DNA of 64,000 bases from Haplodiscus bocki (taxonomy: Eukaryota), in NCBI GenBank assembly GCA_965655095.1, contig OZ296650.1, positions 63,426,001-63,490,000 on the forward strand, written 5' to 3'. Below the pieces are notes generated by a model, which saw nothing but the letters and a program-made list of their open reading frames with translations, had not been told where the DNA came from and did not search any database. Made by a program: the position numbers and the translations under genes. Shown piece after piece: positions 13,404 to 36,969 of the stretch; the first letter of the stretch is position 1, and each line of letters begins with the position of its first letter.

Positions 13404-14545
13404 AGGGATGCGAGACAAAACCGCCGATTTTAGAGTGAGACAAAACAGCCGATTTTGAAAACGGGACAAAATCGCCGATTTTGATAATGAGACAAAACCG
13501 CCGATTTTAAAGTGGGACAAAACCGCCGATTTGTTATAATACAACTCGCTAGTCTTTGCAAAGATAAAAGTAATTCAAGATAAAAGCGTCTTGGCCTAAT
13601 TACGAATAATTAGCAATTAAATTACCATTATACTCATGAAATGGTTTTAACTATGAAACCCAAAATAACCAAGCCCAAATTACCCAAATTTGAAAAAATT
13701 TTGACCGAAATTTGAATTTTTGTAGGAAGCGAAGGTTAAAAATCTGGACAGCCACGAACAGAAGATGATGAAAATTGATAATCCTAATATCTGTAAATTA
13801 AATTTTCTGTCACCTAAGGGGTTCCACCCCAAAATACCCAAGCCCAAAATACCCAAAGTCACAAAGTACCCAAGGCCAAAATACTCAAAGCCAAAATACT
13901 CAAGATTGAAACAACGATACCAATTAAATAGTTAAAAAAGTACCCAAGTAATATCAAAAGTACCCAAAATACTTCATTGCTGGGGTATTTTGGGTTTGCG
14001 TATTTTGGGTTTGGGTATTTTGGGCTTGGGTATTTTGAGTTTGGGTATTTTGTCCTGCCACCCACCCAAGGAAATGCCAATGAAACTGAAAAACTACTAC
14101 AAAAACAACCAATTTCAATTTTTGCGTCATATAATTTTCTGAGTTTTCTTGATACTCAATTGCATGAACCGAAAGAATCCGAAAAGACCATTTCTGAAAC
14201 TTTTGGGAATGTCGTTTTTATTAGCCGCAAAAATTAGGAAATTGCATTTAGTTAGTGGTATCTCAGTTTCTATTAGTAATTCGTAATATAATTGCTAATT
14301 ATCAACAATTAGGCCAAGACGCTTTTATCAGAGAAACAATTTTGATGGCAATTTGTTTTTTTTTTACAAAATCGGCCGTATTGTCACACTTTAAAATCGG
14401 CGGTTTTGTCCACTTTATAATCGGCGATTTTGTCTCATTTTCGAAATCGGCGATTTTGTCTCATTTTCGAAATCGGCGGTTTTGTCTCATTTTCGAAATC
14501 GGCGGTTTTGTCTCATTTAAAATCGGCTGTTTTGTCCTGCCCCCT
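13404..14545. mobile_element. Foldback/MITE-like element with long inverted arms built from 21-22 bp repeats
   Basis: A GAGACAAAACCGCCGATTTT array at 13411-13532 is mirrored by an AAATCGGCGGTTTTGTCTC array at about 14368-14540. The block GATAAAAGCGTCTTGGCCTAATT is also inverted (13579 vs about 14307-14329). Confidence 0.75.
13817..14068. repeat. Nested inner foldback element with 15-bp repeats
   Basis: A CCCAAAATACCCAAG array at 13828-13900 is inverted against a GGGTATTTTGGGTTT array at 13983-14051. It ends TTTTGTCCTGCC, like the outer element. Confidence 0.7.
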
Positions 14546-17400: not shown

Positions 17401-18625
17401 GCTTTAAAAAACGCTATTAACATAGTTTTACATAGAGCTTGGTTTCTCTAGTGATGCTCATCCAATGTGACAAAAAAGATGATTAAGAAACGTACAAAGG
17501 AAATAGGAAATGTTATTTCGTTGATTTTTGCAGCCTCTTTCAGTAAAAATAAAAAAAATCAATTTTTCAAGGGCCAAAACAATCCAGAACTGCTCAATAC
17601 CATAAGAGCAGTGTTCATTGGGTAGTTGGCATTATCTAGTAATTAGCGCCGTTGTTGATGATAAGGATAATTGATCATTCGTAGCAGCGCATCCTGTCAA
17701 AACATTTTTACGGACAAGTTATTTACAAAAACAAGAGTTTTGTTTTGACCAATGCTGTAGGAGGGAAAATCAATCATGCTTAATTTCTTTGGTAGAAAAC
17801 TAACTGAAGATTGGAAAGTTTTTCGTCTAATCAAACCTGGGGGGCATTTCCTATGGGAAAGCACCATTGAGTATGTCATTTGCCGTATTTTGTGTAGAAG
17901 AAAGTTTTTGTAGATTTTTTTCTTTCCAACTTTCAATGACTTTAAATTTCACTTCACAAAATGATCTTATGTATGGAATCACTTGCACGTCCCTCAGAAG
18001 GTATCCTTCACAATCTCAGCTACAAAGCTGCTTTCAGTGATCACGTTTTAAACAAATTTTTGGATGACACTTGTTCAAAAATTCAAACAGAGTTTTTTTG
18101 CGATATCATTTGTAACTTCAATGAAACCTTTGATTGCGTCCGTATCATTTGTCATTTCTCGTCCAATTGTGAACAATTTGGACTATTTCATATGTTTTTC
18201 ACTTGAATAGAATTCGGTACAGTCCTCAGGCATGCTCTTTTGAACGAGAATTTCCGTTTCGTGCTGTCATTGATGCAAGAAGCATTTTGTTTCAAAGGAT
18301 TTTTTGAAACTGTAGTGACTTCTTACGTTCAATCCATGAGGTAATAGAGATCAAAACCAACAGCTCAAGAAATGACCGGGCTGAGCCGTTGTCTGTTGTG
18401 TAATTAAAATTATATCCGAAATGTTGAGATGCAAAGTAGCCGAATTCTACTATTTTGTATTAGATTTTTTTTCTATTGTCAAATACATATTTCTCGAAAA
18501 AACACCAGAATGATCAAGGGCTCAATGCACAACATTTTATCCGAATAAAGTTGTTCGATCGCGGTCTTTTTGGTGTTTTTCCTGAAAAGGGAAGATTGTT
18601 GTGTGAAAGTGCCAATGAGTGCTAT

Positions 18626-20506
18626 TGTCGCGTTAGACCTAACGCTAAACAGCCATAATAATAAACGTTAAACTGAAGCTATAACGCTAACCAGTAGCCA
18701 TAGTATTAAAGAGTGCTAGTCTTGAATTTACGTTAGCAATAACGCTAAACAGTCCATAACGCTAACTAGTGCAAGTTCTAAATTTAGCAATGACGTAAAA
18801 GAAGTAATAATAGCAACTTACCGTTTGAAGGGATAGTTGTTGGAGAGCGGTAACAAATTTGGAATTGCACATTTTGAAGCTTCAAAATTGCGCTGCCATG
18901 CTTCAAACTGATAAAACGAAGCCTTTCTATTTGTTACCCCCCGTTCTCGGAAGTTTGATTTTATTGCTTCCCGAACGGCACACCCTGCTCTTTTTGGTTC
19001 GAATTTTTGACACTTTTTGACAGATCACCATATTTGGTGCTCCTTGGCGCACGGCTTACCGTACTTGGTCATAGCCTTGAAAAGTACGAGGGCTCCGCCA
19101 TTTTGAACGCCGGCCGCCAAAACGAGAGCTCATAACTTTCCTTTTCGCCTACCGTTGACTACCACCTCCAAAACAGCGAAATTACTAAATTTCTTAATTT
19201 TCCCTACAAGAACCATCGAAAACTTCAGAAAATTATAACTTTCGAACAAAATTCCAATCTTCTTAAAAACTGGCCAAAACTTCTTCAAAGACGGAATAAT
19301 TCTACTATTCACAAAGAAACAGAAAACTACTATCCAAAGACCAAACAGCCCAACGGAAGGAATCGAAAGCAGCGTATTGGAAAATTCTAAAAGTATTGAA
19401 CAAAATGTTAGTATCTAAAATAACTAACCCCTGGCAGAGTACATCTCGCCAGGAAACTTAGTATTTAAGATCGGGCCTGTTAGCATATACTCTAAAGAGG
19501 AGCTAACGGATGACCACGAGCCTAAAAGGACGTGTGAGACTCACAGAGTTCCCGAACCATAAGAGAAATTGCTCGGTGGCTACTTCCGTTTGGGGTTGTG
19601 CCCTTTGTCGGCTGCCTCCATTAAAGTGAAATGATGCTGAGTCTTAGATAAAAACCAACACTAACCCAGACTTCGATCAGAAACAAACGTCAGAGGCACA
19701 TTGATTCTTACTCAATGTTTTAAATTCCTGACCCTAAGAGAAATCGCTCGGTTGCTACGCTGAAGCAGAGTTACCGTGTCATAGCTACTAACCTAACACC
19801 TCTGATCGAAGCTGAATTAATTTAGAGTAAAATTGACTTAGAGGATTAATTGTAAAATGAACTGTTAGAAAAGGCGGAAAAATTTATCTTCCGTCCTAAT
19901 GTAACTTTTAGCAGGTTGACGGTGCTCGACTACGACTCATCTCCTAAACAGGTGAGAAAAAGTATTATAACCAATGCTATTATAGTTTTACTGGTTTTAC
20001 ATCTTATTTTTGAGCGAATTAAAACGCGTGCAACAATATTCTTTTGAAATTTATCTAAAAATTTGGATTTATAATTCTGTCATAAAGTTGTCTGGGTATT
20101 GATAAATTCTGAGCAAATAATTTTGGATAATACAGTTGCTAACTTCTTTACTTTGAATGAAACTGGAATAGAGTGAAATTTGAACTAAATTCTTTATGCT
20201 AGAACTGTACCGTCACCTTTGTGCACTCCCTACCAAGTTTACCAGTATTGTATTTGAAGCCATAACTTTATTTCAATATTATAACTGTTAACTCTGAATA
20301 AATTCTCTGCAAATTCTTAAACCACTTCATAGCAATTCACTAAGTCCTTGCCAGCGAATTCACGCAATACTTTGTTCACGCGGGCCGGCAAGTCAATTTT
20401 GAGACTTAAGTTGTTCAAATAGCAACGGCCGCACACCAACAAGTGAAGGACTTTTGTCAACTTGGAAATTGAACTAAATAAATTTAAACTACTAGACCGC
20501 GCGACA
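18626..20506 (+). repeat. 5' LTR
   Basis: TG...CA ends; direct repeat of 35089-36969; TAACGCTAA repeats near the 5' end. Confidence 0.98.
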
Positions 20507-20509
20507 AAC

Positions 20510-20527
20510 TGGTGCGACCAGTGAGGC
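20510..20527 (+). promoter_or_regulatory. Primer binding site
   Basis: TGGTGCGACCAGTGAGG begins 3 nt after the LTR; TGG complements the tRNA CCA end. The TGGTGC-N5-GTGAGG pattern resembles animal tRNA-Ile(UAU) or elongator tRNA-Met 3' ends, but the tRNA is not assigned. Confidence 0.85.
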
Positions 20528-20551
20528 ACTTGTGTTTTTTGTGATGATGCT

Positions 20552-20737
20552 ATGAGTGAAGTCTACGAGTTTTTTATTTCTATTGTGCTACTCTCTCCAG
20601 GCCTCTTAATTTCAATTTTGGTCATTTTCTTAACTGTGAATTATATAGTCACTCTTGGATCTTTATTCTTGGTGCTAGTGAGATTGAATATCTTAAATCA
20701 ACACCAGATTTCTCCAAGTGACCACGTACGAATTTGA
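20552..20737 (+). CDS. Small hydrophobic leader ORF (61 aa, probable membrane protein)
   Basis: ATG-initiated, with a hydrophobic stretch of about 38 aa; first of a closely packed series of ORFs before gag. Confidence 0.5.
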   Translation: MSEVYEFFISIVLLSPGLLISILVIFLTVNYIVTLGSLFLVLVRLNILNQHQISPSDHVRI

Positions 20738-20752
20738 CTTGAGTCACCGTGG

Positions 20753-20884
20753 ATGAGACGTGACTTGATTGTGACTCTCTATTTTTTCTTTTTGGCGATA
20801 GTGGCACTTCTATTGACACCACCTTATCTTCTCGCTGTGATACGATTGGAACGAGTCATAATTGGACAGGACTGTGATTCCTGA
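20753..20884 (+). CDS. Small membrane peptide A (43 aa; not in the ORF track)
   Basis: Translates as MRRDLIVTLYFFFLAIVALLLTPPYLLAVIRLERVIIGQDCDS and is paralogous to 21104-21229. Confidence 0.65.
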   Translation: MRRDLIVTLYFFFLAIVALLLTPPYLLAVIRLERVIIGQDCDS

Positions 20885-21103
20885 TATTCGATGAACGACG
20901 ATCTACCTATCCTACTCATCTAACGAAGCGACTTCAACGCCCATCTATTTCACCTCTCATTTGCAAATTGGGACACTATTTTCTACAAAACTACGGATCG
21001 TTCTTCTTTGGGTAACGTACTATGAGATTGTTTCGGTAAGGTGGACTTCCTGAACTTTCAAAAATTCAATTATTTTTGTATCCTATTATTCCGATTCTTC
21101 TTA

Positions 21104-21229
21104 ATGAGACAGAATTTGATTTTAATCTTGTACTTCCTGTCTCTTGCAATTCTTTTTTTACTTTTGGGACCCGGATATCTTTTATATGTACTTCAACTAA
21201 TGCAAATCATTAAGGAACTCAACGATTAG
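21104..21229 (+). CDS. Small membrane peptide B (41 aa from the ATG)
   Basis: MRQNLILILYFLSLAILFLLLGPGYLLYVLQLMQIIKELND; more than half of the first 32 residues are identical to peptide A with no gaps. Confidence 0.65.
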   Translation: MRQNLILILYFLSLAILFLLLGPGYLLYVLQLMQIIKELND

Positions 21230-21235
21230 ATTTGA

Positions 21236-21595
21236 ATGCCACATCCAAGTGACCAAAATTCAGTTGTTTGGAATACCCTCGGTGACGACGGATTCGACGA
21301 AATACCACATTTCAACTGCCCTTGGACCATCACTACAAACCAGGAGAGTATTACAGTTAATATTATCTACTTAAAGTGGACCTTCAATTACGATTTTTGG
21401 ATTCGTGTGGAAATTCACCCTCAAGGAAATCCTACAGCTTTTCAATTATTGGATATAGACGAACTCCATCCATTGTTTAAATCTCTAGCAACGGCACTTC
21501 TGAACTACTACGAATTTCCAGAACCCCACTTAACTGAGTTCCAACTTCACGTATATGGCGAATTAATGGACCATTTGCTCTACAAAGTCGATTGA
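21236..21595 (+). CDS. Accessory protein of unknown function upstream of gag (119 aa)
   Basis: The ATG lies 6 nt after the previous stop and the stop lies 9 nt before the gag ATG. Globular composition, with weak similarity to 30656-30994. Confidence 0.7.
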   Translation: MPHPSDQNSVVWNTLGDDGFDEIPHFNCPWTITTNQESITVNIIYLKWTFNYDFWIRVEIHPQGNPTAFQLLDIDELHPLFKSLATALLNYYEFPEPHLTEFQLHVYGELMDHLLYKVD

Positions 21596-21604
21596 ATTAA
21601 AATT

Positions 21605-23053
21605 ATGGCTAATTCTCATCTCACATACCCCGACTTGGCCTTAGACAAGTTCTCTGGCACTGATCCCGACCAAGACGCAGAATCTTTCGTCCAGTTAATA
21701 GAAAGAAAAATTAACTTCGCATTAGGTGATGCACCTGCGGATCCGGACGATCTGGTTAGTTACACTTTCCGTGAAAAAGCACTTTTCTCCTCTCTACTGC
21801 GAGGGCCAGCAGCAGAGTGGTACGAAAATAACATTGAGAATGCCACCACTTGGGCAGACACACGAGAACAGTTCATAACGCGATTCTCTGATGGACGAAA
21901 CAAATTCCGACATAGAAAGGAAGTAGAGCACTGTGTACGAGGCGATGGAGAAGAAATCAGGAATTTCCTATATCGGATAAAGAAAATTGTTGACAAAGGA
22001 TGGCCCGACGATATGGAAGGCATCGTAGAAGCAGATAGAGCTGCAGAACGTGAGGCTCAAGGAAGACAAAGAAGACAACGATATATTGACTATACACTAC
22101 GAGGACTTCGTCCAAGATACTTACAACGAAAAGCTCAAGAGTATCTGATGGAACACCCGAACGCAACATGGAATGATTTCTCCACTAGAATCATTCAAAG
22201 AGACGTGAGTTATCAAGTTTCATCGAACTTCCTCAATGATGAGGAACAGACCAAGGTTCAACTAGCTTCGCTAGGACAAGAAATGAAGAATCTTCGTTCT
22301 CAACTACAGGAACATCAAGTTAGTGCACTAGAAAACCCACGTCAGCCCGATCCTAACCAAAAAGGCCGACAAAACGCTACGCGGTTTTGCAATTATTGCC
22401 GCTCCGACGGACACACTCCAAGTTGGTGTAGAAAGAAAATTCGAGATGAAGAAGTTAAGAGAATACAGGACGGGATGATGGCTGAAAAACGCGTAACGTT
22501 CACTAACGATTACAACAAACGCCGAGGACCTATTCACGGATCTGGACAGTTTACCTACAACAATTCTGAAAACAGACATCCAGCTGGACGGGACATAAAT
22601 GATACACAACAATCGACCTACGATGGGGCTACACAGTTCCACCCACGAAATAATTGGGGTAATCCTCCCAGATACAGCACATTTAACTCTGGTCGAGGAC
22701 GACAGTTCAATCGACACCAAAATCAATTTGTCAGCCGCAATGATAACAATGAATACAGGAACGGCTCTACCGGAGCCCCGTCGAGAGGAAACTGGCAGAA
22801 CATTGGGAGTAATCCACGTTCCCCTTCTAGTCCAAGACGAGACCCACAGCCGAGTCGACACTATCAACCCTCACGGTCTATTACACCTGATAATTCGGTA
22901 TTCCGACGATCCAACAGCCAAGAACCTGGCGGTTTTGTGCCGTACGAACAGCGGTTCCCTCGAAACAATGATCAGACTGGCTCTCACACAGTCCGATTCA
23001 CCACTACGGAACATTCAATCAATGTGTTATCCGACCTCTGCCCGTTAAACTGA
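21605..23053 (+). CDS. gag: Gag polyprotein (capsid, coiled coil, CCHC zinc knuckle, N/G/R/Q-rich tail)
   Basis: Retrotransposon-gag motifs FSG..D and LRGPAAEWY...W...REQFITRF; knuckle CNYCRSDGHTPSWC. Confidence 0.95.
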   Translation: MANSHLTYPDLALDKFSGTDPDQDAESFVQLIERKINFALGDAPADPDDLVSYTFREKALFSSLLRGPAAEWYENNIENATTWADTREQFITRFSDGRNKFRHRKEVEHCVRGDGEEIRNFLYRIKKIVDKGWPDDMEGIVEADRAAEREAQGRQRRQRYIDYTLRGLRPRYLQRKAQEYLMEHPNATWNDFSTRIIQRDVSYQVSSNFLNDEEQTKVQLASLGQEMKNLRSQLQEHQVSALENPRQPDPNQKGRQNATRFCNYCRSDGHTPSWCRKKIRDEEVKRIQDGMMAEKRVTFTNDYNKRRGPIHGSGQFTYNNSENRHPAGRDINDTQQSTYDGATQFHPRNNWGNPPRYSTFNSGRGRQFNRHQNQFVSRNDNNEYRNGSTGAPSRGNWQNIGSNPRSPSSPRRDPQPSRHYQPSRSITPDNSVFRRSNSQEPGGFVPYEQRFPRNNDQTGSHTVRFTTTEHSINVLSDLCPLN

Positions 23054-23105
23054 TGAGGTCTCCGAAGTCTGACTCCAATCGCTCACGGAGTTCAAGACTT
23101 AGTCT
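23044..23105 (+). promoter_or_regulatory. Predicted -1 ribosomal frameshift signal (G_TTA_AAC plus downstream structure)
   Basis: The slippery heptamer sits directly before the gag TGA and pol is in the -1 frame. Downstream pairings CTCCG/CGGAG and AAGTCT/AGACTT are possible. Confidence 0.75.
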
Positions 23106-23934
23106 TAACATTTTCTATTTCGCCACCGAAGACGCTCAAAAAGATAGTGGACTGGAAATCGAATTTATGTTAGATACAGGAGCTTCCTGTTCAATCATCA
23201 ATTATCGGACTTTTTGGGAGATCTCGCAATTCCACCATCCTATAAAAGTTCATAGGAGTAATAAAGTAACAAAGACCTAATCAGGCCAGGTCGTACCGAT
23301 GATCGGTTACGCCAGCATAGATTTCAGTTACGACCCTAATGGTGAATATTCTTTTCCTTTAACTGTCTGGATTACGGAAATGAAAACTCAAGACCTCCTT
23401 GGGATGGACTTCTGTCAGAGTCAGACTTCAGGAATCCACTTTGATTTACCTGGCATTGAGTTATGGCAGCCTCCAAAAACCTTCTGTTATGGAAGTCTTC
23501 ACCAGAATAAAACATTTCCTTACGTTTCTCGAATTCTAACGGTTCGATTACCTTACACTATGTACGTTGACGCTAAAAGCGCCAGATGTTGGAAGTACTC
23601 ACCTGAGGACCCAAAATCTCTCTTCCCGCCTGGATCAACTTTTCAACCCAACAGGGAAGCTGTGTCCACAGGTCTTAGCTTTGTTAACATCATTTGCACT
23701 CAGCCCGAACCGACTCTCCCATTACTGATAGAAAATAACAAAAACCATCAAATAACGCTTCCTAAAGAACGGATTGGATTTTCGTGTCTCGATGTAGCTG
23801 ACAAGGAGGAACCAAAGTACCAGATCAGGAACCCCTATGAATTGACAAATACCATAACCGCTACAAATGATAAGTACAACGACTGCTTTCTTTTACACTC
23901 AACCATTCCCGCACAATCTCCAGATGACTGTCTA

Positions 23935-24360
23935 CAAAAAATTCACGGTACCGAGGATTCAATACTACAACAACCTTACTCGATTGGACATTGTATCTCA
24001 GCAGACGCTAAAATGAGCAAAAGATTCGCCGACTTTCTTTCCCAACGAATTCCTGGACTTCGAGATACGTGCAGACGTACAAAATTATTGATAGGACAAA
24101 TTTTCCCATTCTGGGACCAAACTGGTAATCGACATATCTATAATCTAGTGACAAAAACTAAATCTTCTGAAAAACCTAACCTAGCTACTTTATCTTCAAC
24201 TCTGGAAGAAATGAAGTCTCATGCACAACTGTATGGAATCTCTACCATCGCAATTCGTAAAATTGGATGCGGACTTGATCAAATGAACTGGCAAGAGGTT
24301 GTAAAACTACTCAGAGATAATTTTGCCTACTCAAATATCCGAATAGTAGTTTACACCCTA
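23935..24360 (+). other. TARG1/OARD1-like macrodomain embedded in Pol
   Basis: SIGHCISAD..M, IYNLVTK....KP, LEEMKSH, IGCGLDQMNW..V and IVVYTL mirror OARD1 motifs (SLAHCISED, IYYLITK, IGCGLDRLQW, ITVYTL). Confidence 0.9.
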
Positions 24361-27300
24361 GAAGAAAACGGAGTACATGCTTTGTCCTCAGAAGGAGACG
24401 CCGACTTCTATGCGGAAGATGAAATTGAAAGATACAGCGAAGAGTTCTACTTGAATGATAAAGATTTGGAAACGGACTTCACTAGAGATGCTAAATCCTG
24501 TCAACCGACATGTGATGAACAATTTCCAACCTTCCGGGAAAAAGACTACAATATTCAGCTGATTGAGCATTATTTACAATACCAGCCAAAAGAACTAGTG
24601 CAGTACGTGAAAGAATTTGACTTCCAGTTCTCTGATATTACCGACGAGGAGATGACTCTCCTTATCGACATGTTAATCGATTCCAGAGATGTCTACTCGC
24701 AACACAAATTCGCTGTTGGTAAGACCCGTCAAAAGTTTCACGTAACGTTAAAACCGAATGTGGAATTGAAAAGACAGAGACCTAGCAAAGTACCATTGCA
24801 TTTGAAGGAAAAATTGGAGAAACTTCTAACCCAACTTAAAGACGCAGACATTATTCGAGAAATGGGAGACGACGACGAAATGGGATCACCTTTTGTTAAC
24901 CCCATCATCCTGATGCCTAAAAGTAACTATGTGAAACTAGTCATAGACGCTCGTTTCCTAAACTCTGTAACGGATCTCACTAATTACTCATGGCCTCTGG
25001 AACCTGTACAAATGATAATGACCCGAGTCAACGGAAAAATCTTTTCTGTTAGCGATTTATCCTGTGCATACCATCAAGTACCACTGAAACCCGAAACTCA
25101 GAAGCTGACAAGCTTTATCATTGGTGGTAGACAGTACACGTACACCAGAGGATTCTATGGACTTTGCGGGTTACCTACTTTTTTTAGTCGACTAATGACA
25201 ATTCATTTTGAACCGCTGATTAAAAAGAAGCAAGCAATAACCTACATAGACGATACAATAATGCAATCACAAAACAAAGGTGAAATGTTCTCGATCATCC
25301 ATGAGTACCATAATTTACTCAGGAAAGCTGGCTTGAAAGCCGCCCCAGAAAAGACTTTCTTTTTCCTCAAAAAGGTGAAATTTTTGGGACACGTTATTTC
25401 GTCTGAAGGAATACAGCCAATTGCAAAACGGGTAAAGGATCTGAAGAGTCTTAAATCACCTGAATCTAAACGAGACGTCATGAGAATTTTGGGAAGTCTG
25501 GGATTCTACGGCTGCTACATTAAAAATCTTCATGTGGATAGTAAACCCTTCTACGACCTCATTAGAGATTCTACTTCATTCCATTGGACTGAAGAGCATG
25601 AGAAGATCTTCCAAATGATAAAGGACAGGATCAGCGAAGATACAATCCTCGCCATCCCCTCTACTGAGTATCCATTTCATATCCACGTTGATTCGTCCAA
25701 CGTGGGAACCGGATGTGTTTTGATACAACAATTCCCGGAAGGGAAGCGGATTATCTCTTTCAATTCTTGTATTTTCGATAAAGCAGAACAGAAGATGTCT
25801 ACTCTCCACAAGGAATTGTGTGGAATCGTTTCAGCGTTACAAACTTACGAGCATTACATTATTGGATCTCCTTTTCCAATATACTTGTATTGTGACCATA
25901 AACCAATTCTTTATTTATGGGGGCGCAAGGGACAGTTATCTCATCGCTTCTTTCGATATCAGGTAATAATAACGAAGTTCCAGAATTTGAAGATCATCTG
26001 GACGCCAGGATCTAACCTGGCTTTCCCTGATATGCTTAGCCGGAACGTGACCATTGATGAATACCAACATCACCAGTTACAACACAAGAAGCTACCACGA
26101 GATATTCAGTATTTTGATGAACATGGACAACAAATTACGTACAAAATTAACCACGATGATACTTCAGCTGAAAAGTGTAACGATTTCTACCCCATCAATT
26201 GCCAACAAGGCAAGGACCAGAAGATACTCCGATTACATAATGATGGTAAAAATTTTTCTCTTAACAGCATCAGTACTGAATTTGCCACTTCCACAGCACA
26301 ATTAGCTGCGGATTGTTTCCGAATGGGACGAACTATCAACCAGTTCCGACGGTTATGCCGACCAGGTTCTCCAGTATCTTTATCATCATCTGAAAGCTCC
26401 ACTGGAACCTACAGTTCTATCAGTGTAATTGAGATGGACGGAACCGAGGAAACTGAACCTTCTTCATATGCTGAACGCGTAGTTCACGAAAATTGTGATA
26501 GTGAGGAAGATGAAGATGACTACGTTTATGAGATCAACGCCAACGATCACTACCGCATAGGCAAGGCTCGAGCAGCTCATGAATCACTGATTAGTGACCC
26601 TGACACTCTCTTAGTAAAAAAGACCCTATCAGCTACGGCTGCTCCTCATTTGAAAACCTGGGACTTGATCACTAAACTGGATGACGTTGCAAAAGTCGTC
26701 GATCTTGATATTCCTACCATCTTACAAGAACAACTCAAAGACCCACTACTGAGTATTGTGCGCTCCTGGATCGAAAGAAATCTCTCACCCGACCTCAAAG
26801 CTCCAGAGATTCGACAGTCCAAAGTTCTTCTCAGATACGGTCAAGAGCTAGATCGACTACTCATAGAAGACCACGGACAACTCCTGTGTTATGACGAACC
26901 ATCTGACTCCTTAGAATAAAGGAACTTACGGATCTGTTTGCCATTATCTCTCTTCTTAGCCTGTTGCCGAATGGGACACTATAACGAGCTAGGTGGACAC
27001 ATGGGCGCTTCCAAGACGTACACTAACGCTAAATGATTTTACTATTGGCCTGGGATGTTCGACTGGATCTGCGCTCTCACAGCTGATTGTCTTGCGTGTC
27101 AGAATAATAAACCTAAACCTAAACATCTTAAAGAAGTACCACTGGAAGAATGGCAAGGTGATACTGCACCATTTAGTGCAATACATATTGACCATAAAGG
27201 ACCTCTCCATGCACCGAGCAACTGGAATACTCACTGTCTTTTGATAGTGGACTCTTTTTCGCGTTTCTTAATGGTCTATCCTGTTACCAATACTGGAGCA

Positions 27301-28872
27301 CAAGCTACAATCGCTGCAGTTGAGAAATGGATACTTCCTTTTGGGATTCCCCAGTCAATAATACATGATAGAGGAACAGCTTTCCTTAACACAGACTTTG
27401 TTAATTGGACTAAAGAATTAGGAATTACCCTGCGACCACGCACAGCCCACTCACCGTGGACAAACGGCAAAGTAGAAACTCAAAACCAGCATATCGCACG
27501 TTATTGGAGAAGCTTTCTGAACAATGCTGGTACTAATTGGGCTCCCCTCGCACCAAAGTTTGCCTTCGCGCATAATACCAGCGTTAATTACACTACTGGA
27601 AAAACTCCGTACGAAATCGTCTTTGGTACCAAACCACAGATTCCTATGTCTGTCAAAATGGTACTTTATCGTAACAAACATTAATTATGTTGTTCAGAAT
27701 TCTGCATCGACTTACCTCCTCATACTCATGACGAGAACTCTACGAAGAATGAGCTACTCCAGAAACTACTTCGACCACAACTTTCTCAGGCTCTGTTGGA
27801 TCGAGAGCGAGACTTTAAACGAATTTACTCTTCTACTTTTGAACGATGCAGAGAACAAACAGCGCGCTCCCACGCATACACAAACAGATTTAAACTAGGA
27901 CACCATCTAGACGTTGGCCAGAAAGTCCTTTACGAAAACCACCGGCAAGACCTGTCAAAAAGTCAAAAGCTACAACAACGACGATTGGGCCCTTTCACTG
28001 TTACCAAACGAGTAACTAGCACTACTTATCAAATTCAAGACGACAAAGACCCATCCATTACCAAAACAGTACATCGTAACCATTTGGTTGAATATTATCC
28101 TAAAGAAGAATCACTTCCAGCTATGATCGACGAATACGTACCACACGACCAGCGACATGATGATTTCTATGAACGGTTCTTGGAACAACGAATTGGGAAA
28201 TTGAATAGCTTTACAACGCCACCCGCCGAGGACACCATTCCATTTCCAATTAGACTGGTACCCACGGCTCCGGCAATCGCTTCACACAAACGTGATAGCC
28301 TTACTAGCAGTGATTCGGGAGTTGGCTCACCTCAGGTTTTTTCGCCGACCCAACCCATAACTCCTGAACAACAACCACCGCATTCACAGGAGACGGAAAA
28401 TGAACAGCCATTAACCTCGGCTTCTACTAGACCATTCACTCCGATTCAACAATTTTTGTGGAACAGCCGAAAGTCCAAAGCGAGAGAGCCCAAATATTTC
28501 AGACCTCAGCCACATGACCCTAATCCTCAATCGGCCCTACGCACACTCACCCGTCAGGGCTATAAACTTTGATCAGCAACAATTCGTTGTTGCTCAACAC
28601 TCGCTCACATTCTTGTTCTGAGCAATTCATTACTTATTACTCGTGATACTTCGGACCAGATGCCTAAATGTCATAAATTTTACCCCAATTGCCGGTGGAT
28701 GGTTACCCACTGTTGGCCTAGCCTGACACTTGACAAAGTACTGTTAACAAAAGTTTATTGGAGCTATTCAACACACATCGTCCGTGTGTGCTTTACACCT
28801 CTAATAGAACCTACACTTAAACAGGATCTAAAGCGCAAGCGTAATGTCCAAATAACTTTCAACTCTCCTGCC

Positions 28873-29034
28873 ATGGCAAGCCTTTATGAACTTCTTTGCT
28901 ACCATTCTCTTGAAAATTTCGATCCAATTATGGACGAATTCCTTACTTTTATTCATTCTTCACGATCTTCACTTTCTTCAGCAATTTCCACCGCCCTACC
29001 CGAACCAGCTGATGATCATCTCAACGATTCCTAA
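28873..29034 (+). CDS. Possible small accessory ORF (53 aa)
   Basis: Strong Kozak context GCCATGG; product MASLYELLCYHSLENFDPIMDEF...; no homology recognised. Confidence 0.3.
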   Translation: MASLYELLCYHSLENFDPIMDEFLTFIHSSRSSLSSAISTALPEPADDHLNDS

Positions 29035-29170
29035 ATTTTCCAATATAACTATCTCACAAAAATTGGAATGTGCAATCCCAAAACAACTGAACACTAACTG
29101 CGCAGAGGATTAGTATGGACATACAGTGACTAAACCGACGGGGGAGGATAACCCCGCCGGCAGGAGCCGC

Positions 29171-29635
29171 TCAGTCCAGGCACAGGAAGCCCCCGTCTTC
29201 CGCCAAGGACTTAACCCGCGCCCGGAAGACGATTTGGGGCCACGAGTCCATCGCCTGAGCGAACTCCCCCCTCTGCTCCTCCACGAGGCCGAGCCACCCG
29301 GCGAGGATTGCCCGCAACTCAAACAGCAGAACCTCGCCGGACTCGGACAGGATCATAGCCTCCCAGTCCTCTCCGTAATACCGGACCAGGAAGCTTCTGA
29401 AACCTGCGAACACCGGGGCTTCTTGCGTTGGCGCTTCATCGTCGCCCCAGTGAAACCTCATGAAGGCCCTCCAACCTTCAAGCCAGAATAAGGCAGGCTC
29501 CCCAAATACGTATAGGGGCCCGCCAAAGGAATCTTCCGCCGTGGCGTGGAAGAGTGGGAGTTCCGGGAGAGGGTCAATCCCGTCCCACCCAACCACCTCC
29601 ACGACGACTCCAGGGGGTGATGGAGGATCTGCCAT
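29171..29635 (-). CDS. Antisense accessory ORF (154 aa, acidic, Trp-rich)
   Basis: Occupies a distinct GC-rich island. The ATG (GGATGG) is preceded by an acceptor-like TTGTTACAG, and the composition is protein-like. Confidence 0.6.
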   Translation of the reverse strand: MADPPSPPGVVVEVVGWDGIDPLPELPLFHATAEDSFGGPLYVFGEPALFWLEGWRAFMRFHWGDDEAPTQEAPVFAGFRSFLVRYYGEDWEAMILSESGEVLLFELRAILAGWLGLVEEQRGEFAQAMDSWPQIVFRARVKSLAEDGGFLCLD

Positions 29636-30184
29636 CCTGTAACAACAATGAAATGTAACAACAATCGGACATTAATAACAACTGGAATGAAACCCACCAA
29701 ATCCCTAAAAACGAGACTACTCTTCACCGGAATTTTCCACCCAATTTTTATTCTGAACCCGTCAATTTATCGCGTTCTCCTCAACTTCTGTTACTCCCTA
29801 CCCGCCAATTTTTTCGCTATTTTTCCCCGGAAGGCCCTGCTGTGACAAAGCACAGCAGAGCGGAAGAAAAACAAAAAAAGGAAGAAATGAAGAAAAATAT
29901 TGTTGCACGATTCCGTTTATTAAATTAGCACGATTCCGCTTACACTTAAATCGTCTAAATTAAATGAATAAAATTATTTACTCTGAACTTAATTTCAATG
30001 AATCTTTTAAATTATTAATTAGTTATCTTACGAAATGTTTAAAACGTGGTTCTAATTTGAAGCATCGTTCTCAGATGTGATATGCACTCAGAACGGTACG
30101 AAGCAGCTCAACGCACCTCATATCCGATCCAGCAACGGACAGCAAACACCTAACACTCAACCAATTGGGGGATCTATTGAACAG

Positions 30185-30406
30185 ATGACAATCATATTCT
30201 TCAGAATCAACGGAGACACTTTCATCCTACGGAGGATAACCTACGATTCAACTACAGAAAGCTTTGATGTAAAAACACAAGCTATCGAAACCGGAGTACA
30301 GACAATTTTCAACTGCCCTAAAACTTCCGAACATTATACTTTTGTAGAAGGTCTTTACAAATACCCTCCACCAGCAGAAATAAAAAGCAAAAAAAGAATC
30401 ATTTAA
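30185..30406 (+). CDS. Accessory protein, tandem paralog 1 (73 aa from the ATG)
   Basis: Shares IN.D...L...TY.S.T..F.V.T and F.CP..SEHY.F...LY..PPP..IKS with 30424-30648. Confidence 0.8.
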   Translation: MTIIFFRINGDTFILRRITYDSTTESFDVKTQAIETGVQTIFNCPKTSEHYTFVEGLYKYPPPAEIKSKKRII

Positions 30407-30423
30407 ACGATTACAAAAGTCAA

Positions 30424-30648
30424 ATGAGCAAATTCTTTCTCGAAATTAATAACGACTCTTATCTTCTCGAACACTTAACTTATATTTCTGAAACTAAAGT
30501 ATTTACAGTATTTACAGAAAGAGTCGGTGATTGGACAAAAATTAAATTCAAGTGCCCCGAAGAATCAGAGCACTATTCTTTCATTAGACACCTTTACTTC
30601 AATCCGCCACCAGAAAACATAAAGAGTATAAACAAAATTTTCGAGTAA
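30424..30648 (+). CDS. Accessory protein, tandem paralog 2 (74 aa)
   Basis: Ungapped protein-level similarity to 30185-30406 despite diverged DNA. Confidence 0.8.
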   Translation: MSKFFLEINNDSYLLEHLTYISETKVFTVFTERVGDWTKIKFKCPEESEHYSFIRHLYFNPPPENIKSINKIFE

Positions 30649-30655
30649 AATCTTC

Positions 30656-30994
30656 ATGACTTACGAGCTTAACCTTAAGTGTATTTGGCAACATCCTACG
30701 ACTGGAAACCATCTGGAGATAACAAAAATTGTTTGGGGAGAAGTTGAAAAGCCAATAAAAATAACAGTCAAAAGTCTACGACAAGCTCAGCTTGGAACGT
30801 GGACAATACATATCAAACCAGACACAGAAGACCTGATCAACCTCCTGTCGTCTCTGATAGTTTTCACCAAGTTCCCCTTCTTTGCTCAAGCTCACCCATT
30901 ACAAAAACATCTGGTGAAAGAGCTCATTCTCCTTTGTCAGTCACTAACTCACGACGGACAATCCAGCTCAAAGCGTGCTAAGACTAGTTATTAG
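30656..30994 (+). CDS. Accessory protein of unknown function (112 aa)
   Basis: The ATG lies 7 nt after the previous stop. Possible distant paralog of 21236-21595, with a basic C-terminus (KRAK). Confidence 0.7.
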   Translation: MTYELNLKCIWQHPTTGNHLEITKIVWGEVEKPIKITVKSLRQAQLGTWTIHIKPDTEDLINLLSSLIVFTKFPFFAQAHPLQKHLVKELILLCQSLTHDGQSSSKRAKTSY

Positions 30995-31020
30995 AGCTTC
31001 AACTCAGGCTAGAAAACCCC

Positions 31021-31125
31021 GATTGGCACTTTTTTGACGATCCGGTTTTAGTCCGGCGTCCCTTTTTGACGATACTGGGTTCGGTCCAGCGTCCTTTATA
31101 AAAATCTCGACGTCGTTTTTCAGTA
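31021..31125 (+). promoter_or_regulatory. Candidate internal promoter upstream of env
   Basis: ATTGG (31022), two direct repeats of about 32 bp (TTTTTGACGAT...GTCCRGCGTCC), TATAAAA (31097) and Inr-like TCAGT (31120). Confidence 0.5.
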
Positions 31126-31224
31126 GTGGAGCAACTACTATGAAATTTTTGCTCCCGCTTTGTCTTAGTGCCCACAAAGCTGCCGGTTTGATATTACGGC
31201 TTATTTTTTAGCTACCCTTTACAA

Positions 31225-33399
31225 ATGGGACCTCCGCTACTTAAGTTAGCGATGAAGCTATTATTTCTTCAAATCCTCGCACTTACTTTCGAGGTAGTTT
31301 TCAACTTAACTCCAGATGAAGACCAGGTTGCCCCAACGCTAAAAGTAGCTCATTTTGATTGCAGTGAAATGACTGAAAATACTCTTTCCGCTATAAATCA
31401 GGTACGACCATGCCATATTACGCCTGAAGAATTGGAAGTAAGTAAGGCCAAAGTTGTGCTCTACACCAAACACTTCAGAAAAGAATTAAACGCCACTAAA
31501 TGCCGAGTACAACATCAACGAGAAAAATGGCATTGCGGACACCATGATCATAGCAGCATTGATCATACTATTGCAGGAATCACAAGCGATATTATAATCT
31601 CTCCAGAACAATGCCGAACTTTAGCAAAAGGAAAAGATATTACTTTGCTTGGACATTCGATAAACTTTGGTTTTGATACAAAAAATCCTATTGTGAAAAC
31701 TTATGGTGATACCAGTGATGACTACAGGAACGAATGTGACGGTAAAGGTTGGATCACTCGTGACATCTTCCTCCCTCACATGCAGACAACAACTCTGAAA
31801 GTTACCTTAGAAAGCGGAAAAGTCCTATCCGATACTGGTTTAATTTTACCATGTGCCCTTGAAGAACTGGGATGTGAAACTACTTCGTTAGTCCCCTACG
31901 CTTACATTTGGGACTATCCTCACAATTGTGCTATCTCAATTCTCCGAACAGAGGAAGTCAATATGGTGAAACAAGGAAAGAAGTACTATGTTATCAGTGG
32001 AGTTGATTCCAGCTCTAAATTTGTATTCGAAGTCAAGAACCACCCTCAGAAACATTGTGGAAAACCGACACCTAGTTATCCTACCAACTATGACTCTCTT
32101 TATATGGACCGTCTAAGTGAAGGTTTTGACATGGACACCGGGAGAAACCTGGGTCGCGGTCGAAATGGAGCAACCAAAATCCTACAGTACTTGGGACCAA
32201 AGGAGAAAGGAGATTTTGGTCAACTTTACGTTCATAACCCCCAGTTGGAGGGAACACAAAAAGTACAAACAGCGGACCCCGACAACTACTTAAATATTGA
32301 TTACGAAATGCACCTTGGGACTAAAATTGACTATCAATTTTTTCAGAGCTCGCGATTACTCCAAGCTACGGAAATACAGCTACTGCAGAATCAATGTGAA
32401 CAGGAACGGACTCAAATTCTAACGAATCTTATGCTAGCTCTTGAAAACCCTCGCCTGGCCGGTTACATGCTCACCGGTAACCGATCAATGTTTCTCGAAA
32501 CAGACGGGAGTGTAGCATGGCTCTATCATTGCCCGAAAGTTCACTCGCCCCTTCATACCATGAATCAATGCTATGATAAAATTCCGATTCTTTACCGGGG
32601 ACAGATTCAATTTGTCGATCCTATAACTCGACAAACCTATCCTCATGCCATGACTCAAAACTGTTCCGATCGCATCAAGAACTTGTTCCAACTCGATATG
32701 GTTCAGGATGGTTCTTGGTACACACTAACATCTGGCATCGTACATCAAGACAAGCCTGCCATATTCGGACCTCAGAACATTAACCCAGTCGCTTCTTACA
32801 CTTTTACTGGATCACAGGATGCAGGCATGTACACACGTAATGAACTTAAAGGATTCTGGAATAGCATCCTTATCAACGCCGCTTCGAGAACGGCCTTTAA
32901 AAAGTTCTCACAAAATCTCATTGTCTACTCCACTACTGATGAAGGAACAGATGGATCTCACTATTATACGCCACGAACAGAGTTTTTTGTGGATAAAATG
33001 ATTTCGCCCGGGTACTTTAAAGATCAATTTTTGGACACATTTGGACTTGTTGTCTATGTACTCAAACATTGCGGAATTTACTTCTCGGTCTTTTTGTTCA
33101 TCAAGCTTATAATTGATATGGTAGTTATGATCGTGCGCTACATGGAAAAAGATAAGTTAACTGGTTCCACTCTAGGGTTTGGTAAGACCCTTTTGAGTGC
33201 ATCATACAATATTTTCTTAACAAGTGTCTTAACTTCCATGTATAGCCCACGTGCTCCGGCACTAACCGCTGTTGAGCATATGGACGCAAGCCCATGTGTC
33301 GCAAATGATATGCATGAGGTGAAAGAGGAAGCGAAAAAGAAAGACGAGCACCTCTACCCTGCAATGAGCACAGTCACACTACCATTATCACCGGTATAA
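31225..33399 (+). CDS. env: Envelope glycoprotein, chuvirus/Monjiviricetes-like class III fusion protein (724 aa)
   Basis: N-terminal signal peptide. Cys motifs AHFDC, KCRV....WHCG..HSS, QCR, LENP.LAGY.L...GSVAWLYHC..V and CYDKIPILY....FVDPITR. C-terminal TM GIYFSVFLFIKLIIDMVVMIV and N-glycosylation sequons. The ORF is intact. Confidence 0.88.
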   Translation: MGPPLLKLAMKLLFLQILALTFEVVFNLTPDEDQVAPTLKVAHFDCSEMTENTLSAINQVRPCHITPEELEVSKAKVVLYTKHFRKELNATKCRVQHQREKWHCGHHDHSSIDHTIAGITSDIIISPEQCRTLAKGKDITLLGHSINFGFDTKNPIVKTYGDTSDDYRNECDGKGWITRDIFLPHMQTTTLKVTLESGKVLSDTGLILPCALEELGCETTSLVPYAYIWDYPHNCAISILRTEEVNMVKQGKKYYVISGVDSSSKFVFEVKNHPQKHCGKPTPSYPTNYDSLYMDRLSEGFDMDTGRNLGRGRNGATKILQYLGPKEKGDFGQLYVHNPQLEGTQKVQTADPDNYLNIDYEMHLGTKIDYQFFQSSRLLQATEIQLLQNQCEQERTQILTNLMLALENPRLAGYMLTGNRSMFLETDGSVAWLYHCPKVHSPLHTMNQCYDKIPILYRGQIQFVDPITRQTYPHAMTQNCSDRIKNLFQLDMVQDGSWYTLTSGIVHQDKPAIFGPQNINPVASYTFTGSQDAGMYTRNELKGFWNSILINAASRTAFKKFSQNLIVYSTTDEGTDGSHYYTPRTEFFVDKMISPGYFKDQFLDTFGLVVYVLKHCGIYFSVFLFIKLIIDMVVMIVRYMEKDKLTGSTLGFGKTLLSASYNIFLTSVLTSMYSPRAPALTAVEHMDASPCVANDMHEVKEEAKKKDEHLYPAMSTVTLPLSPV

Positions 33400-33449
33400 A
33401 AATTTCTTTTAACGTAATACGTTACTAATTCTTAGTGTTTAGATTTTCA

Positions 33450-34058
33450 ATGCAGAGCGACGACTCATTGCCTATCCTAACTGATCTGGATTTCATATTC
33501 CCAACCTTAACACCATCAGCATTGGAACAACCAGCCGAGCCAGTTGTACCTCTTCGCTCACCTCCTTCGATAAGTATTCCATCAAACCCTGCTTCACCCG
33601 ACGAGCAATCAGACACAGCTTCAACGACGCGGGGACTATCTTCGGTTACGGGGTATTCAATTGCTACCTTCACTACTGACCAGCAACCAATTCCTACTAT
33701 TGCATCTTCTGTTGGAAACGTTAAGTCCAAGAACTCATCCTCTCGCCGTGCACGCACACGCGCACGACCTAAACGAGTCCGAAAATTGCGACGACACACC
33801 AGCAAAGACTTCCAAAAAGGAGACAGACTAACACTTGCTCGCCAACACAAAAGGGAAAAATTCGCCCAACTCGCGAGGGCCGTGAAGAAACCTCGTTTCA
33901 ACCCCCATTTGTGTTATAGCTTGAAACCAGAATATTCCTCCTGGAAGTTAATTTTTTGGGACAGCCAGCAACAGGAGTTCACCATACAGAACACACTTCT
34001 TCCCACTCAGAGGCTTGTTGTTCCTCTGTGCGCTATTACAGCTAATCCGCAGTATTGA
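33450..34058 (+). CDS. Accessory protein with a Ser/Pro/Thr-rich N-terminus and an Arg-rich motif (202 aa from the ATG)
   Basis: Long open frame between env and TRAF; basic tract RRARTRARPKRVRKLRR. Confidence 0.7.
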   Translation: MQSDDSLPILTDLDFIFPTLTPSALEQPAEPVVPLRSPPSISIPSNPASPDEQSDTASTTRGLSSVTGYSIATFTTDQQPIPTIASSVGNVKSKNSSSRRARTRARPKRVRKLRRHTSKDFQKGDRLTLARQHKREKFAQLARAVKKPRFNPHLCYSLKPEYSSWKLIFWDSQQQEFTIQNTLLPTQRLVVPLCAITANPQY

Positions 34059-34120
34059 TTTAAATGTTAAATTACTCTTCTTGAAATTACTTAAAAGTTC
34101 AACTTAAAAACTTGTGAATA

Positions 34121-35047
34121 ATGAACTACCTACTCCCTGAATCTTTGCGATTACCCGAGGAACCTGCCTCCTCTATCCAAACTCTACCTACAGATGGCAA
34201 TTCAACTTTATCACTTGCGGGGAATATGTATTCCACCTTACTGCAATTGCGTACACATGTGGAAACAGAAAAGTTGGAGCGAACAACACTCAAGGAACTA
34301 GTACAACGTATTCAAAGAGACTTTGCTCTTTTACAACCTCACATTGAAGCGCTTGACCAAAAAACTGCAAACCAGTCTTCCCCACTAGTATCCCTTGAAA
34401 ACAAAATCAAAATTTTAGAAAAACGTTTCTCCACTGAGACGGGCAGGCACAATGCGAAGCTTAATTCTCTACAACTTCAACTATCTACAATGGGCGATCA
34501 AATTTGCCAGTTCGAACATAGTAATTGCAATTTTGTTTTGTGGAAGGTAACATCTATCAAACTAGTTTTCGAATCTGCCAGACTATGGTATCTAAAGCCT
34601 GGACGAGAATATCCGCCGACCACCCGACTTCGAAGCCCTATCTTCCGATCTCACCCATATGGCTATAATTTCCACCTGAACTTGTATCCTTATGGTTTCG
34701 CTGCTGCTATTGGGACTTGGATGTCTCTTTCACTTTCTGTATCGGCTGGCGAATATGACGACATCTTAACCAGGCCTATTTCTAAAACAATTCAAATCAA
34801 AGTGCGGGATCAACTTAACCCTCTGAATGCCTGGAGCCAGACCATTGAACCCAGAGAATTAACACGACCTACAACCACTGACTTCTCTACAGTGCCAACA
34901 GTTCGGTACCCGTACTTCTTCCCGCATACGAAACTTTTTGAAGAAACTGATGGCTACTTTGGTAATGACACTATGTACTTTGAAATTTCTTTCTTTGACC
35001 CCCCAATACCACCTACCCAGTCTTCTCTACTTTTTCCTTTTCCGTAG
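34121..35047 (+). CDS. TRAF-like protein: coiled coil plus MATH/TRAF-C domain, no RING or zinc fingers (308 aa)
   Basis: FVLWKV, SPIFRSHPYGYNFHLNLYPYG, GTWMSLSL..GEYDDIL..P, VRDQ and GYFGNDTMYF match the TRAF-C consensus (SP.FYT..YGYK..L.LY.NG...GTHLSLF..GEYD.LL.WPF...DQ). Intronless. Confidence 0.93.
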   Translation: MNYLLPESLRLPEEPASSIQTLPTDGNSTLSLAGNMYSTLLQLRTHVETEKLERTTLKELVQRIQRDFALLQPHIEALDQKTANQSSPLVSLENKIKILEKRFSTETGRHNAKLNSLQLQLSTMGDQICQFEHSNCNFVLWKVTSIKLVFESARLWYLKPGREYPPTTRLRSPIFRSHPYGYNFHLNLYPYGFAAAIGTWMSLSLSVSAGEYDDILTRPISKTIQIKVRDQLNPLNAWSQTIEPRELTRPTTTDFSTVPTVRYPYFFPHTKLFEETDGYFGNDTMYFEISFFDPPIPPTQSSLLFPFP

Positions 35048-35076
35048 AGAACCCCAATCAATTTCAACACCTTGTC

Positions 35077-35087
35077 AGTGGGGTGAG
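35077..35087 (+). promoter_or_regulatory. Polypurine tract
   Basis: AGTGGGGTGAG lies 1 nt before the 3' LTR. Confidence 0.7.
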
Positions 35088-35088
35088 T

Positions 35089-36969
35089 TGTCGCGTTAGA
35101 CCTAACGCTAAACAGCCATAATAATAAACGTTAAACTGAAGCTATAACGCTAACCAGTAGCCATAGTATTAAAGAGTGCTAGTCTTGAATTTACGTTAGC
35201 AATAACGCTAAACAGTCCATAACGCTAACTAGTGCAAGTTCTAAATTTAGCAATGACGTAAAAGAAGTAATAATAGCAACTTACCGTTTGAAGGGATAGT
35301 TGTTGGAGAGCGGTAACAAATTTGGAATTGCACATTTTGAAGCTTCAAAATTGCGCTGCCATGCTTCAAACTGATAAAACGAAGCCTTTCTATTTGTTAC
35401 CCCCCGTTCTCGGAAGTTTGATTTTATTGCTTCCCGAACGGCACACCCTGCTCTTTTTGGTTCGAATTTTTGACACTTTTTGACAGATCACCATATTTGG
35501 TGCTCCTTGGCGCACGGCTTACCGTACTTGGTCATAGCCTTGAAAAGTACGAGGGCTCCGCCATTTTGAACGCCGGCCGCCAAAACGAGAGCTCATAACT
35601 TTCCTTTTCGCCTACCGTTGACTACCACCTCCAAAACAGCGAAATTACTAAATTTCTTAATTTTCCCTACAAGAACCATCGAAAACTTCAGAAAATTATA
35701 ACTTTCGAACAAAATTCCAATCTTCTTAAAAACTGGCCAAAACTTCTTCAAAGACGGAATAATTCTACTATTCACAAAGAAACAGAAAACTACTATCCAA
35801 AGACCAAACAGCCCAACGGAAGGAATCGAAAGCAGCGTATTGGAAAATTCTAAAAGTATTGAACAAAATGTTAGTATCTAAAATAACTAACCCCTGGCAG
35901 AGTACATCTCGCCAGGAAACTTAGTATTTAAGATCGGGCCTGTTAGCATATACTCTAAAGAGGAGCTAACGGATGACCACGAGCCTAAAAGGACGTGTGA
36001 GACTCACAGAGTTCCCGAACCATAAGAGAAATTGCTCGGTGGCTACTTCCGTTTGGGGTTGTGCCCTTTGTCGGCTGCCTCCATTAAAGTGAAATGATGC
36101 CGAGTCTTAGATAAAAACTAACACTAACCCAGACTTCGATCAGAAACAAACGTCAGAGGCACATTGATTCTTACTCAATGTTTTAAATTCCTGACCCTAA
36201 GAGAAATCGCTCAATTGCTACGCTGAAGCAGAGTTACCGTGTCATAGCTACTAACCTAACACCTCTGATCGAAGCTGAATTAATTTAAAGTAAAATTGAC
36301 TTAGAGGATTAATTGTAAAATGAGCTGTTAGAAAAGGCGGAAAATTGTACCTTCCGTCCTAATGTAACTTTTAGCAGGTTGACGGTGCTCAACTACGACT
36401 CATCTCCTAAACAGGTGAGAAAAAGTATTATAACCAATGCTATTATAGTTTTACTGGTTTTACATCTTATTTTTGAGCGAAATAAAACGCGTGCAACAAT
36501 TTTCTTTTGAAATTTATCTAAAAATTTGGATTTATAATTCTGTCATAAAGTTGTCTGGGTATAGATAAATTCTGAGCAAATAATTTTGGATAATACAGTT
36601 GCTAACTTCTTTACTTTGAATGAAACTGGAATAGAGTGAAATTTGAGCTAAATTCTTTATGCTAGAACTGTACCGTCACCTTTGTGCACTCGCTACTAAG
36701 TTTACCAGTATTGTATTTGAAGCCATAACTTTATTTCAATATTATAACTGTTAACCCTGAATAAAATCTCTGCAAATTCTTAAACCACTTCATAGCAATT
36801 CACTAAGTCCTTGCCAGCGAATTAACGCAATACTTTGTTCACGCGGGCCGGCAAGGCATTTTTGAGACTTAAGTTGTTTAAATAGCAACGGCCGCACACC
36901 AACAAGTGAAGGACTTTTGTCAACTTGGAAATTGAACTAAATAAATTTAAACTACTAGACCGCGCGACA
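35089..36969 (+). repeat. 3' LTR
   Basis: Direct repeat of 18626-20506, followed by the TSD CTAT. Confidence 0.98.

Follow-up and report, generated by a model that had tools for sequence, protein, structure and literature searches.

The element at the locus

The window examined here is a stretch of 64,000 nucleotides of the Haplodiscus bocki genome assembly (contig OZ296650.1, positions 63,426,001 to 63,490,000), and all coordinates below refer to it. A retroelement of 18.3 kb occupies 18626-36969, and a TARG1/OARD1-class macrodomain lies within its pol frame (Table 1). The TG...CA ends of the long terminal repeats (LTRs), the target-site duplication, the protease (PR)-reverse transcriptase (RT)-RNase H-integrase order, the single RNase H and the RT nearest to that of Ty3 identify the element as Ty3/Gypsy; in searches of the PDB, RT scored better against Ty3 (E 1e-37) than against foamy (4e-22) or MLV (6e-15) sequences. 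An RT tree of 18 rows, built without reference elements, placed the family on one long branch. The third ORF, with hydrophobic stretches near aa 19 and aa 629-650, is predicted to encode a fusion glycoprotein, which makes the element by its sequence an envelope-carrying Ty3/Gypsy element, that is, an errantivirus in the wide sense.

Table 1. Positions in the window of the features of the Ty3/Gypsy element, with the basis of each call
Feature	Position	Strand	Basis or remark
Left target-site duplication, CTAT	18622..18625	+	Second copy at 36970-36973
5' LTR, 1881 bp, TGTCGCG...CGCGACA ends	18626..20506	+	98.8% to 3' LTR, 22 mismatches, gapless
Primer-binding-site-like stretch, begins TGG, 3 nt past LTR	20510..20526	+	Sequence
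gag ORF, 485 aa, open	21596..23053	+	Retrotrans_gag E 2.3e-6
pol frame, -1 relative to gag, overlaps gag end	22972..28572	+	77% over 1841 columns to P0009
Aspartyl protease, DTG near 23173	23149..23418	+	Motif; Pfam gag-asp_proteas in relatives; limits projected from P0009
Segment of ~170 aa between protease and macrodomain	23419..23934	+	Subfamilies 70-83% identical
TARG1/OARD1-class macrodomain	23935..24360	+	Lys84 equivalent 24154, Asp125 equivalent 24277
Reverse transcriptase, approximate limits	24750..25400	+	RVT_1 E 3e-17; top PDB match Ty3 RT, E 1e-37
RNase H	25585..25980	+	RT_RNaseH_2 E 3.6e-25
Integrase: zinc finger, core, SH3-like tail	26960..28095	+	Integrase_H2C2, rve E 2.5e-13, p58_C, SH3_Tf2-1
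env-like ORF, 735 aa, open, mononegavirus/chuvirus-type fusion glycoprotein (predicted)	31192..33399	+	PF24664 E 4.2e-39
TRAF-like ORF, 309 aa, coiled-coil region and MATH domain	34118..35047	+	MATH_2 E 8e-15
G-rich tract adjoining 3' LTR, possible polypurine tract	35078..35088	+	Sequence
3' LTR	35089..36969	+	Alignment to 5' LTR

The pol frame was compared with P0009, an open relative of 1827 aa, with the stops of the window copy read as X. The end of gag (23040-23053) reads ...G TTA AAC TGA, and the -1 frame, that of pol, is open there; we take this to be a near-canonical slippery site. The segment between PR and the macrodomain may be dUTPase-like, given its position, as in the planarian element Burro; searches of the PDB, Pfam and the atlas gave no support for a dUTPase identity, and the best atlas scores of the segment (0.84 and 0.90) came without an assigned family. 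Four further ORFs (21236-21595, 28573-29034, 30056-30994 and 33429-34058) had no Pfam match and are possible accessory genes. Elsewhere in the window, another gag region of retroelement type, containing tandem repeats of 42 nt, was seen at 59437-61080, and long inverted arms of 25-26-nt subrepeats, fold-back- or MITE-like, at 13412-14536.

The best PDB matches of the TRAF-like ORF were TRAF5/TRAF1 (E 2e-9), and no RING or zinc-finger match was found in it. The ORF resembles a possible dominant-negative TRAF. The ORF has 150 relatives, and identity ranges from 68 to 94% among the 120 listed.

Class and fold of the macrodomain

The frame at 23935-24360 (+) translates into 142 stop-free residues that contain the motifs LVTK and GCGLD, and an open stretch of 1212 aa (23281-26919, +) encloses it together with RT and RNase H. 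Its place between PR and RT, first read from the sequence, proved correct, the protease DTG lying upstream and RT some 120 residues downstream. When the PDB was searched with phmmer, five of the seven matches were human TARG1/C6orf130 (E 4.7e-21 to 6.3e-21) and the other two were DarG macrodomains (E 4e-4 and 6e-3), while the Pfam Macro profile matched the window domain weakly (E 2.5e-4, barely below the cut-off). The Lys of LVTK aligns with Lys84 of TARG1 and the Asp of GCGLD with Asp125, the residue numbers being counted from the phmmer alignment; these two residues form the catalytic dyad of TARG1 (PMC9411070).

An AlphaFold model of the domain, based on an 80-row alignment, had a pLDDT of 95.4 and was superposed on TARG1 (PDB 4J5R, 4J5S) with a Z of 22.8 and an rmsd of 1.4 A over 136 residues, at a structural identity of 28-30%. 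Lower Z values were obtained with DarG (19.6), Bt_1257 (17.9), Poa1p (17.4), SCO6735 (17.1), ALC1 (14.2) and the viral MacroD-type macrodomains (<=13.8), and Foldseek ranked them in the same order. Based on the sequence matches, the fold ranking and the alignment of the Lys/Asp dyad, the class of the macrodomain is TARG1/OARD1, not DarG. The sequence-only reading had named it TARG1/DarG-class and proposed a classification among the macrodomain subfamilies; TARG1 comes first by sequence and by fold, so the first half of that name stands (E 5e-21, Z 22.8) and the second is to be dropped (E 4e-4, Z 19.6, and the dyad Asp is present).

The domain shares with human TARG1/OARD1/C6orf130 the fold, the Lys84/Asp125 dyad and the HCIS and GCGLD motifs. 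However, TARG1 is a stand-alone nuclear enzyme, whereas the version of the family is a domain of Pol and a predicted enzyme, in which Ser replaces the Asp of the N-terminal G-D-L motif, a short insertion precedes that residue and Phe occupies the position of Ile44. The DarG macrodomain (PDB 5M3I, 5M3E; Z 19-19.6) is similar in its ALC1-like class and its catalytic Lys, but according to PMC9411070 it lacks the dyad Asp, which the family keeps, and a Pfam scan of 12 ORFs of the element found no DarT-type partner. The viral MacroD-type macrodomains (coronavirus Mac1, alphavirus nsP3), polyprotein-borne domains of parasites and the model for countering PARPs, differ in class and mechanism.

The G-D-L position, at which the register of the alignment is uncertain because of the short insertion nearby, is Ser in 100 of 102 rows of the family; among 100 homologues outside the family it is Asp in 79 and Asn in 10. 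The SARS-CoV-2 macrodomain accepts Asn, but not Val, in place of its adenine-binding Asp (PMC7729036). By analogy, ADP-ribose binding in the family may be weaker or different, given the Ser, and a neighbouring acidic residue might stand in for the Asp.

The copy in the window is a dead, non-autonomous member of its family. Its pol frame is broken by in-frame stops at 23278, 26917, 27034 and 27682, of which the first lies inside the protease, upstream of the macrodomain, and the last two inside the integrase. Because of the stop within the protease, the copy cannot produce the macrodomain as part of Gag-Pol. In addition, the domain has Arg at the equivalents of Gly43 (24022) and Pro118 (24256), which is found in only four of 107 and three of 113 family rows, respectively. 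In TARG1, Gly43Glu abolishes binding and catalysis, and Glu at Gly123 also abolishes binding (PMC5928194). The macrodomain of this copy is probably inactive. As for the LTR pair, the first 1013 bp are identical and all 22 mismatches fall within the last 870 bp, a clustering with a probability of about 4e-8 if mismatches were evenly spread. This pattern and the four pol stops suggest that a defective copy was recently mobilised in trans and underwent a template switch, or else that gene conversion or a collapse in the assembly occurred; the identity of the LTRs is no simple clock for this element.

Distribution and conservation of the macrodomain

Thirty Pol-length relatives were found among 270 candidates of the domain search. 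The clusters of five of them contain 854, 617, 498, 201 and 61 members, and some of the relatives are open Pol proteins of 1750-1850 aa. A region of 2.1 kb was covered in 30 of 30 bins by 4332 and 4753 contigs from two DNA-type runs, depths that do not represent copy numbers. A search of sequencing runs yielded five, with no RNA run among those listed; one was a 'coral metagenome' (share 0.07, 205 contigs). No relatives were confirmed in viral and metagenome contigs, among 19 and 79 pattern matches.

All 58 family proteins that span both flanks, out of 100 examined, carry the whole macrodomain, which is therefore a fixed trait of a high-copy family. Residues were counted in 114 family rows out of 194 examined, the rows being related to one another and including the protein of the window itself. 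Lys84 is kept in 107 of 111 rows and Asp125 in 110 of 113; the sequence-only reading had noted both residues in the single copy and would have been contradicted by a consensus without them, and they are retained family-wide. Pocket residues are also kept (Gly123 in 109/113, Ser35 in 98/102, His32 in 99/102 and Thr83 in 110/111), and the Gly43-equivalent position is alike in 95 of 107 rows.

Columns conserved in 100 outside homologues were retained more than variable columns in nine of ten pairs of subfamilies (for example, 34/51 versus 11/48, p = 2e-5; p ranged from 9e-3 to 4e-8, for pairs that are not independent), and pocket columns were preferentially retained down to about 48% identity. 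The exception (p = 0.2) was P0132, a distant relative with a motif-less domain at the same site of Pol. Because conserved columns are kept in nine of the ten pairs, the macrodomain is, as judged from these alignments, under selection in the family; the selection seen in this test is for the fold and the pocket, which a pure binder would equally require. Between subfamilies, the macrodomain is 74-81% identical, RT 91-97% and the flanking spacers 70-83%, so that the domain diverges faster than RT and at a rate similar to the spacers.

The wider surveys were made with TARG1-class queries only. A search of the full library gave 2146 matches, of which 150 were listed; among the 72 that were domain-scanned, several were retroelement or viral proteins. 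In a profile search restricted to longer proteins (120 listed), 19 of the 21 scanned were other integrase/RT-type proteins with a TARG1-class domain, located after the integrase in 11, after RNase H in seven and between PR and RT in one (P0342); by inspection, all 19 domains keep the Lys of LxTK. Named hosts of other retroelement carriers include sawfly, periwinkle and loach, and automatic annotations already flag such proteins. The insertion site is thus flexible, with three Pol positions across elements, and the PR-macrodomain-RT layout is rare but not unique. Taken together, these domain matches identify the TARG1-class domain as a recurrent passenger of Pol in animal LTR elements.

The window family and a sister subfamily form their own clade (97/97), with no supported sister outside it, and most of the branching in the domain trees (129 and 46 rows) has little resolution. 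AU tests did not reject a single clade for the seven post-protease domains (p = 0.052), nor one that unites the 26 domains of LTR elements (p = 0.11), and independent captures are therefore not claimed. The macrodomain of P0179, which follows a stretch called protease-like by eye, groups (100/98) with those of P0320 and P0328 at the RNase H-integrase site, so the domain may move within Pol. Two Pol proteins (P0185 and P0327) have a second, degenerate macrodomain. Fusions of TARG1-class domains were also seen in P0160, P0186, P0144, P0157, P0198, P0230, P0249, P0251 and P0296, the partners being DNA ligase III/BRCT, uracil glycosylase, NADAR, TatD, LINE-ORF1-like proteins, a picorna-like polyprotein and Banna virus VP5; HMG is also among the fusion partners of homologues. 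The class occurs as well in Kadipiro virus VP8 and in insect virga/negev-like viruses.

Macrodomains had been said from the sequence to be known already in some retroelements, which agrees with the literature: fish epsilon-like endogenous retroviruses carry macro domains (Basta et al. 2009, as cited in PMC4977317). These, however, are Retroviridae with another macro position, whereas the element of the window is Ty3/Gypsy. The TARG1-class domain follows the integrase in retrovirus-like Pol proteins that have two RNase H domains, and in a single protein from loach. The planarian giant Gypsy Burro/GYPSM1 (PMC6431247) resembles the window element in having MATH_TRAF_C, an env of the mononegaviral-glycoprotein type and an insert between PR and RT, but that insert is dUTPase-like, and 'macro' occurs 0 times in that paper. 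Burro also exceeds 30 kb and has env between gag and pol in a single polyprotein, whereas the window element measures 18.3 kb and has a separate env after pol; these differences, with a dUTPase undetected, rule it out as a Burro-type giant Gypsy. A 2026 survey of envelope-carrying Ty3/Gypsy 'errantiviruses' (PMC13524379) describes LTR elements with a similar gag-pol-env layout from many animals, some of them with a class III (gB-type) env, but 'macro' occurs 0 times in its main text and the occurrences shown from its supplement are species names. A literature search whose scope excluded Repbase reports and most subscription journals found no TARG1-class domain in a Gypsy Pol. Published precedents thus exist for the macro domain, in retroviruses of fish, and for TRAF, in Gypsy elements of planarians, and the TARG1-class domain in Gypsy Pol is apparently undescribed in the sources searched.

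Possible roles of the domain in Pol

TARG1 removes ADP-ribose from Glu/Asp and from thymidine by means of Lys84 (PMC8501950), and PARPs act against viruses, including retroviruses (PMC7729036). We give an even chance to the reading that intact members of the family carry an ADP-ribose eraser in their particles. An ancestor of this envelope-carrying Ty3/Gypsy lineage would have acquired the macrodomain in Pol, and selection would have kept it. In intact members the domain would be translated with Gag-Pol through a -1 frameshift, as the -1 overlap of gag and pol suggests, would enter the particle with RT and integrase, as expected from Ty3/Gypsy biology, and would be either released by the protease or left attached to a neighbour. 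Its Lys/Asp dyad could then strip terminal ADP-ribose or whole chains from Glu/Asp of proteins that belong either to the element or to the host in the surroundings of the particle and pre-integration complex, and the effect would be a reversal of host PARP action, as MacroD-type domains achieve for RNA viruses. A domain that is functional from three Pol sites fits a diffusible or cleaved enzyme. In the accessible literature on PARPs and retrotransposition, we could not find an ADP-ribosylation defence against LTR retrotransposons. The sequence-only reading had also paired the domain with TRAF as a second counter-defence arm; the analysis confirmed the TRAF-like ORF and its many copies, but found nothing that connects it with the macrodomain.

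The domain may instead be a reader. By binding RNA, or chromatin that is ADP-ribosylated or PARylated, it would tether the particle or pre-integration complex, much as the chromodomains of chromoviruses do, or help to hold the genomic RNA. Conservation of the pocket suits such a binder, as do the change in the adenine loop and the motif-less relative P0132, and 11 of the 19 outside cases lie directly after the integrase, the usual place of targeting modules. TARG1 itself has affinity for both PAR and RNA, and sites of damage recruit it (PMC5928194). However, both catalytic residues are retained at 96-97%, and in the window family the domain is far from the integrase, from which cleavage by the protease would separate it; we consider a pure reader unlikely, though not negligible.

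A role in housekeeping at integration, in which ADP-ribose made by PARP1/2 at nicks, gaps or stalled RT intermediates is cleared to aid repair without any immune conflict, would be in keeping with the many homologues that are joined to proteins of DNA repair (DNA ligase III/BRCT, uracil glycosylase and HMG) and with the action of TARG1 in the damage response. It is improbable, because the TARG1 of the host should already do that job and the same class is found in cytoplasmic RNA viruses, which never integrate.

Quite improbable is an eraser of thymidine-linked ADP-ribose that guards the cDNA. De-modification of thymidine is common to TARG1, DarG and SCO6735 (PMC8501950, PMC9411070), the Lys is retained, and reverse transcription exposes single-stranded DNA. 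But human cells have no known thymidine writer (PMC8501950), the nearest fold is that of TARG1, with the Asp that DarG lacks, and the class is present in RNA viruses without a DNA stage. That the domain is a neutral passenger, once a host exon and now carried along in a linker of Pol that tolerates it, is very improbable and largely refuted: its identity between subfamilies does not exceed that of the flanking spacers, but it is retained in 58 of 58 proteins with its pocket columns selectively kept.

Returning to the particle-borne eraser, the interest of the finding rests more on the recurrence of the domain across retroelements than on the dead copy in the window. An eraser that is kept in an abundant family, and found at three Pol positions elsewhere, would offer a testable case for an effect of ADP-ribosylation on LTR retroelements too, and the Pol macrodomains are small natural domains for assay. 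The thymidine modification that TARG1 removes has no known writer in human cells (PMC8501950), and the cDNA of retroelements is one candidate for its substrate. If the domain proved to be only a reader, it would represent a targeting module of a new kind.

It was through the macrodomains of RNA viruses that antiviral immunity based on PARPs came to light. By a wider conjecture, which we regard as rather improbable, TARG1-class macrodomains recur as a mobile module of Pol, at three positions and in both Gypsy and retrovirus-like lineages, as a response to a so far unrecognised defence of animals in which retroelement particles are ADP-ribosylated. Its agent could be a writer directed at thymidine that modifies the single-stranded cDNA as it is made, and the Ser-for-Asp pocket would be a sign of retuning to the substrate. 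If this were true, the macrodomains of Pol would serve as a tracer toward the missing writer enzyme.
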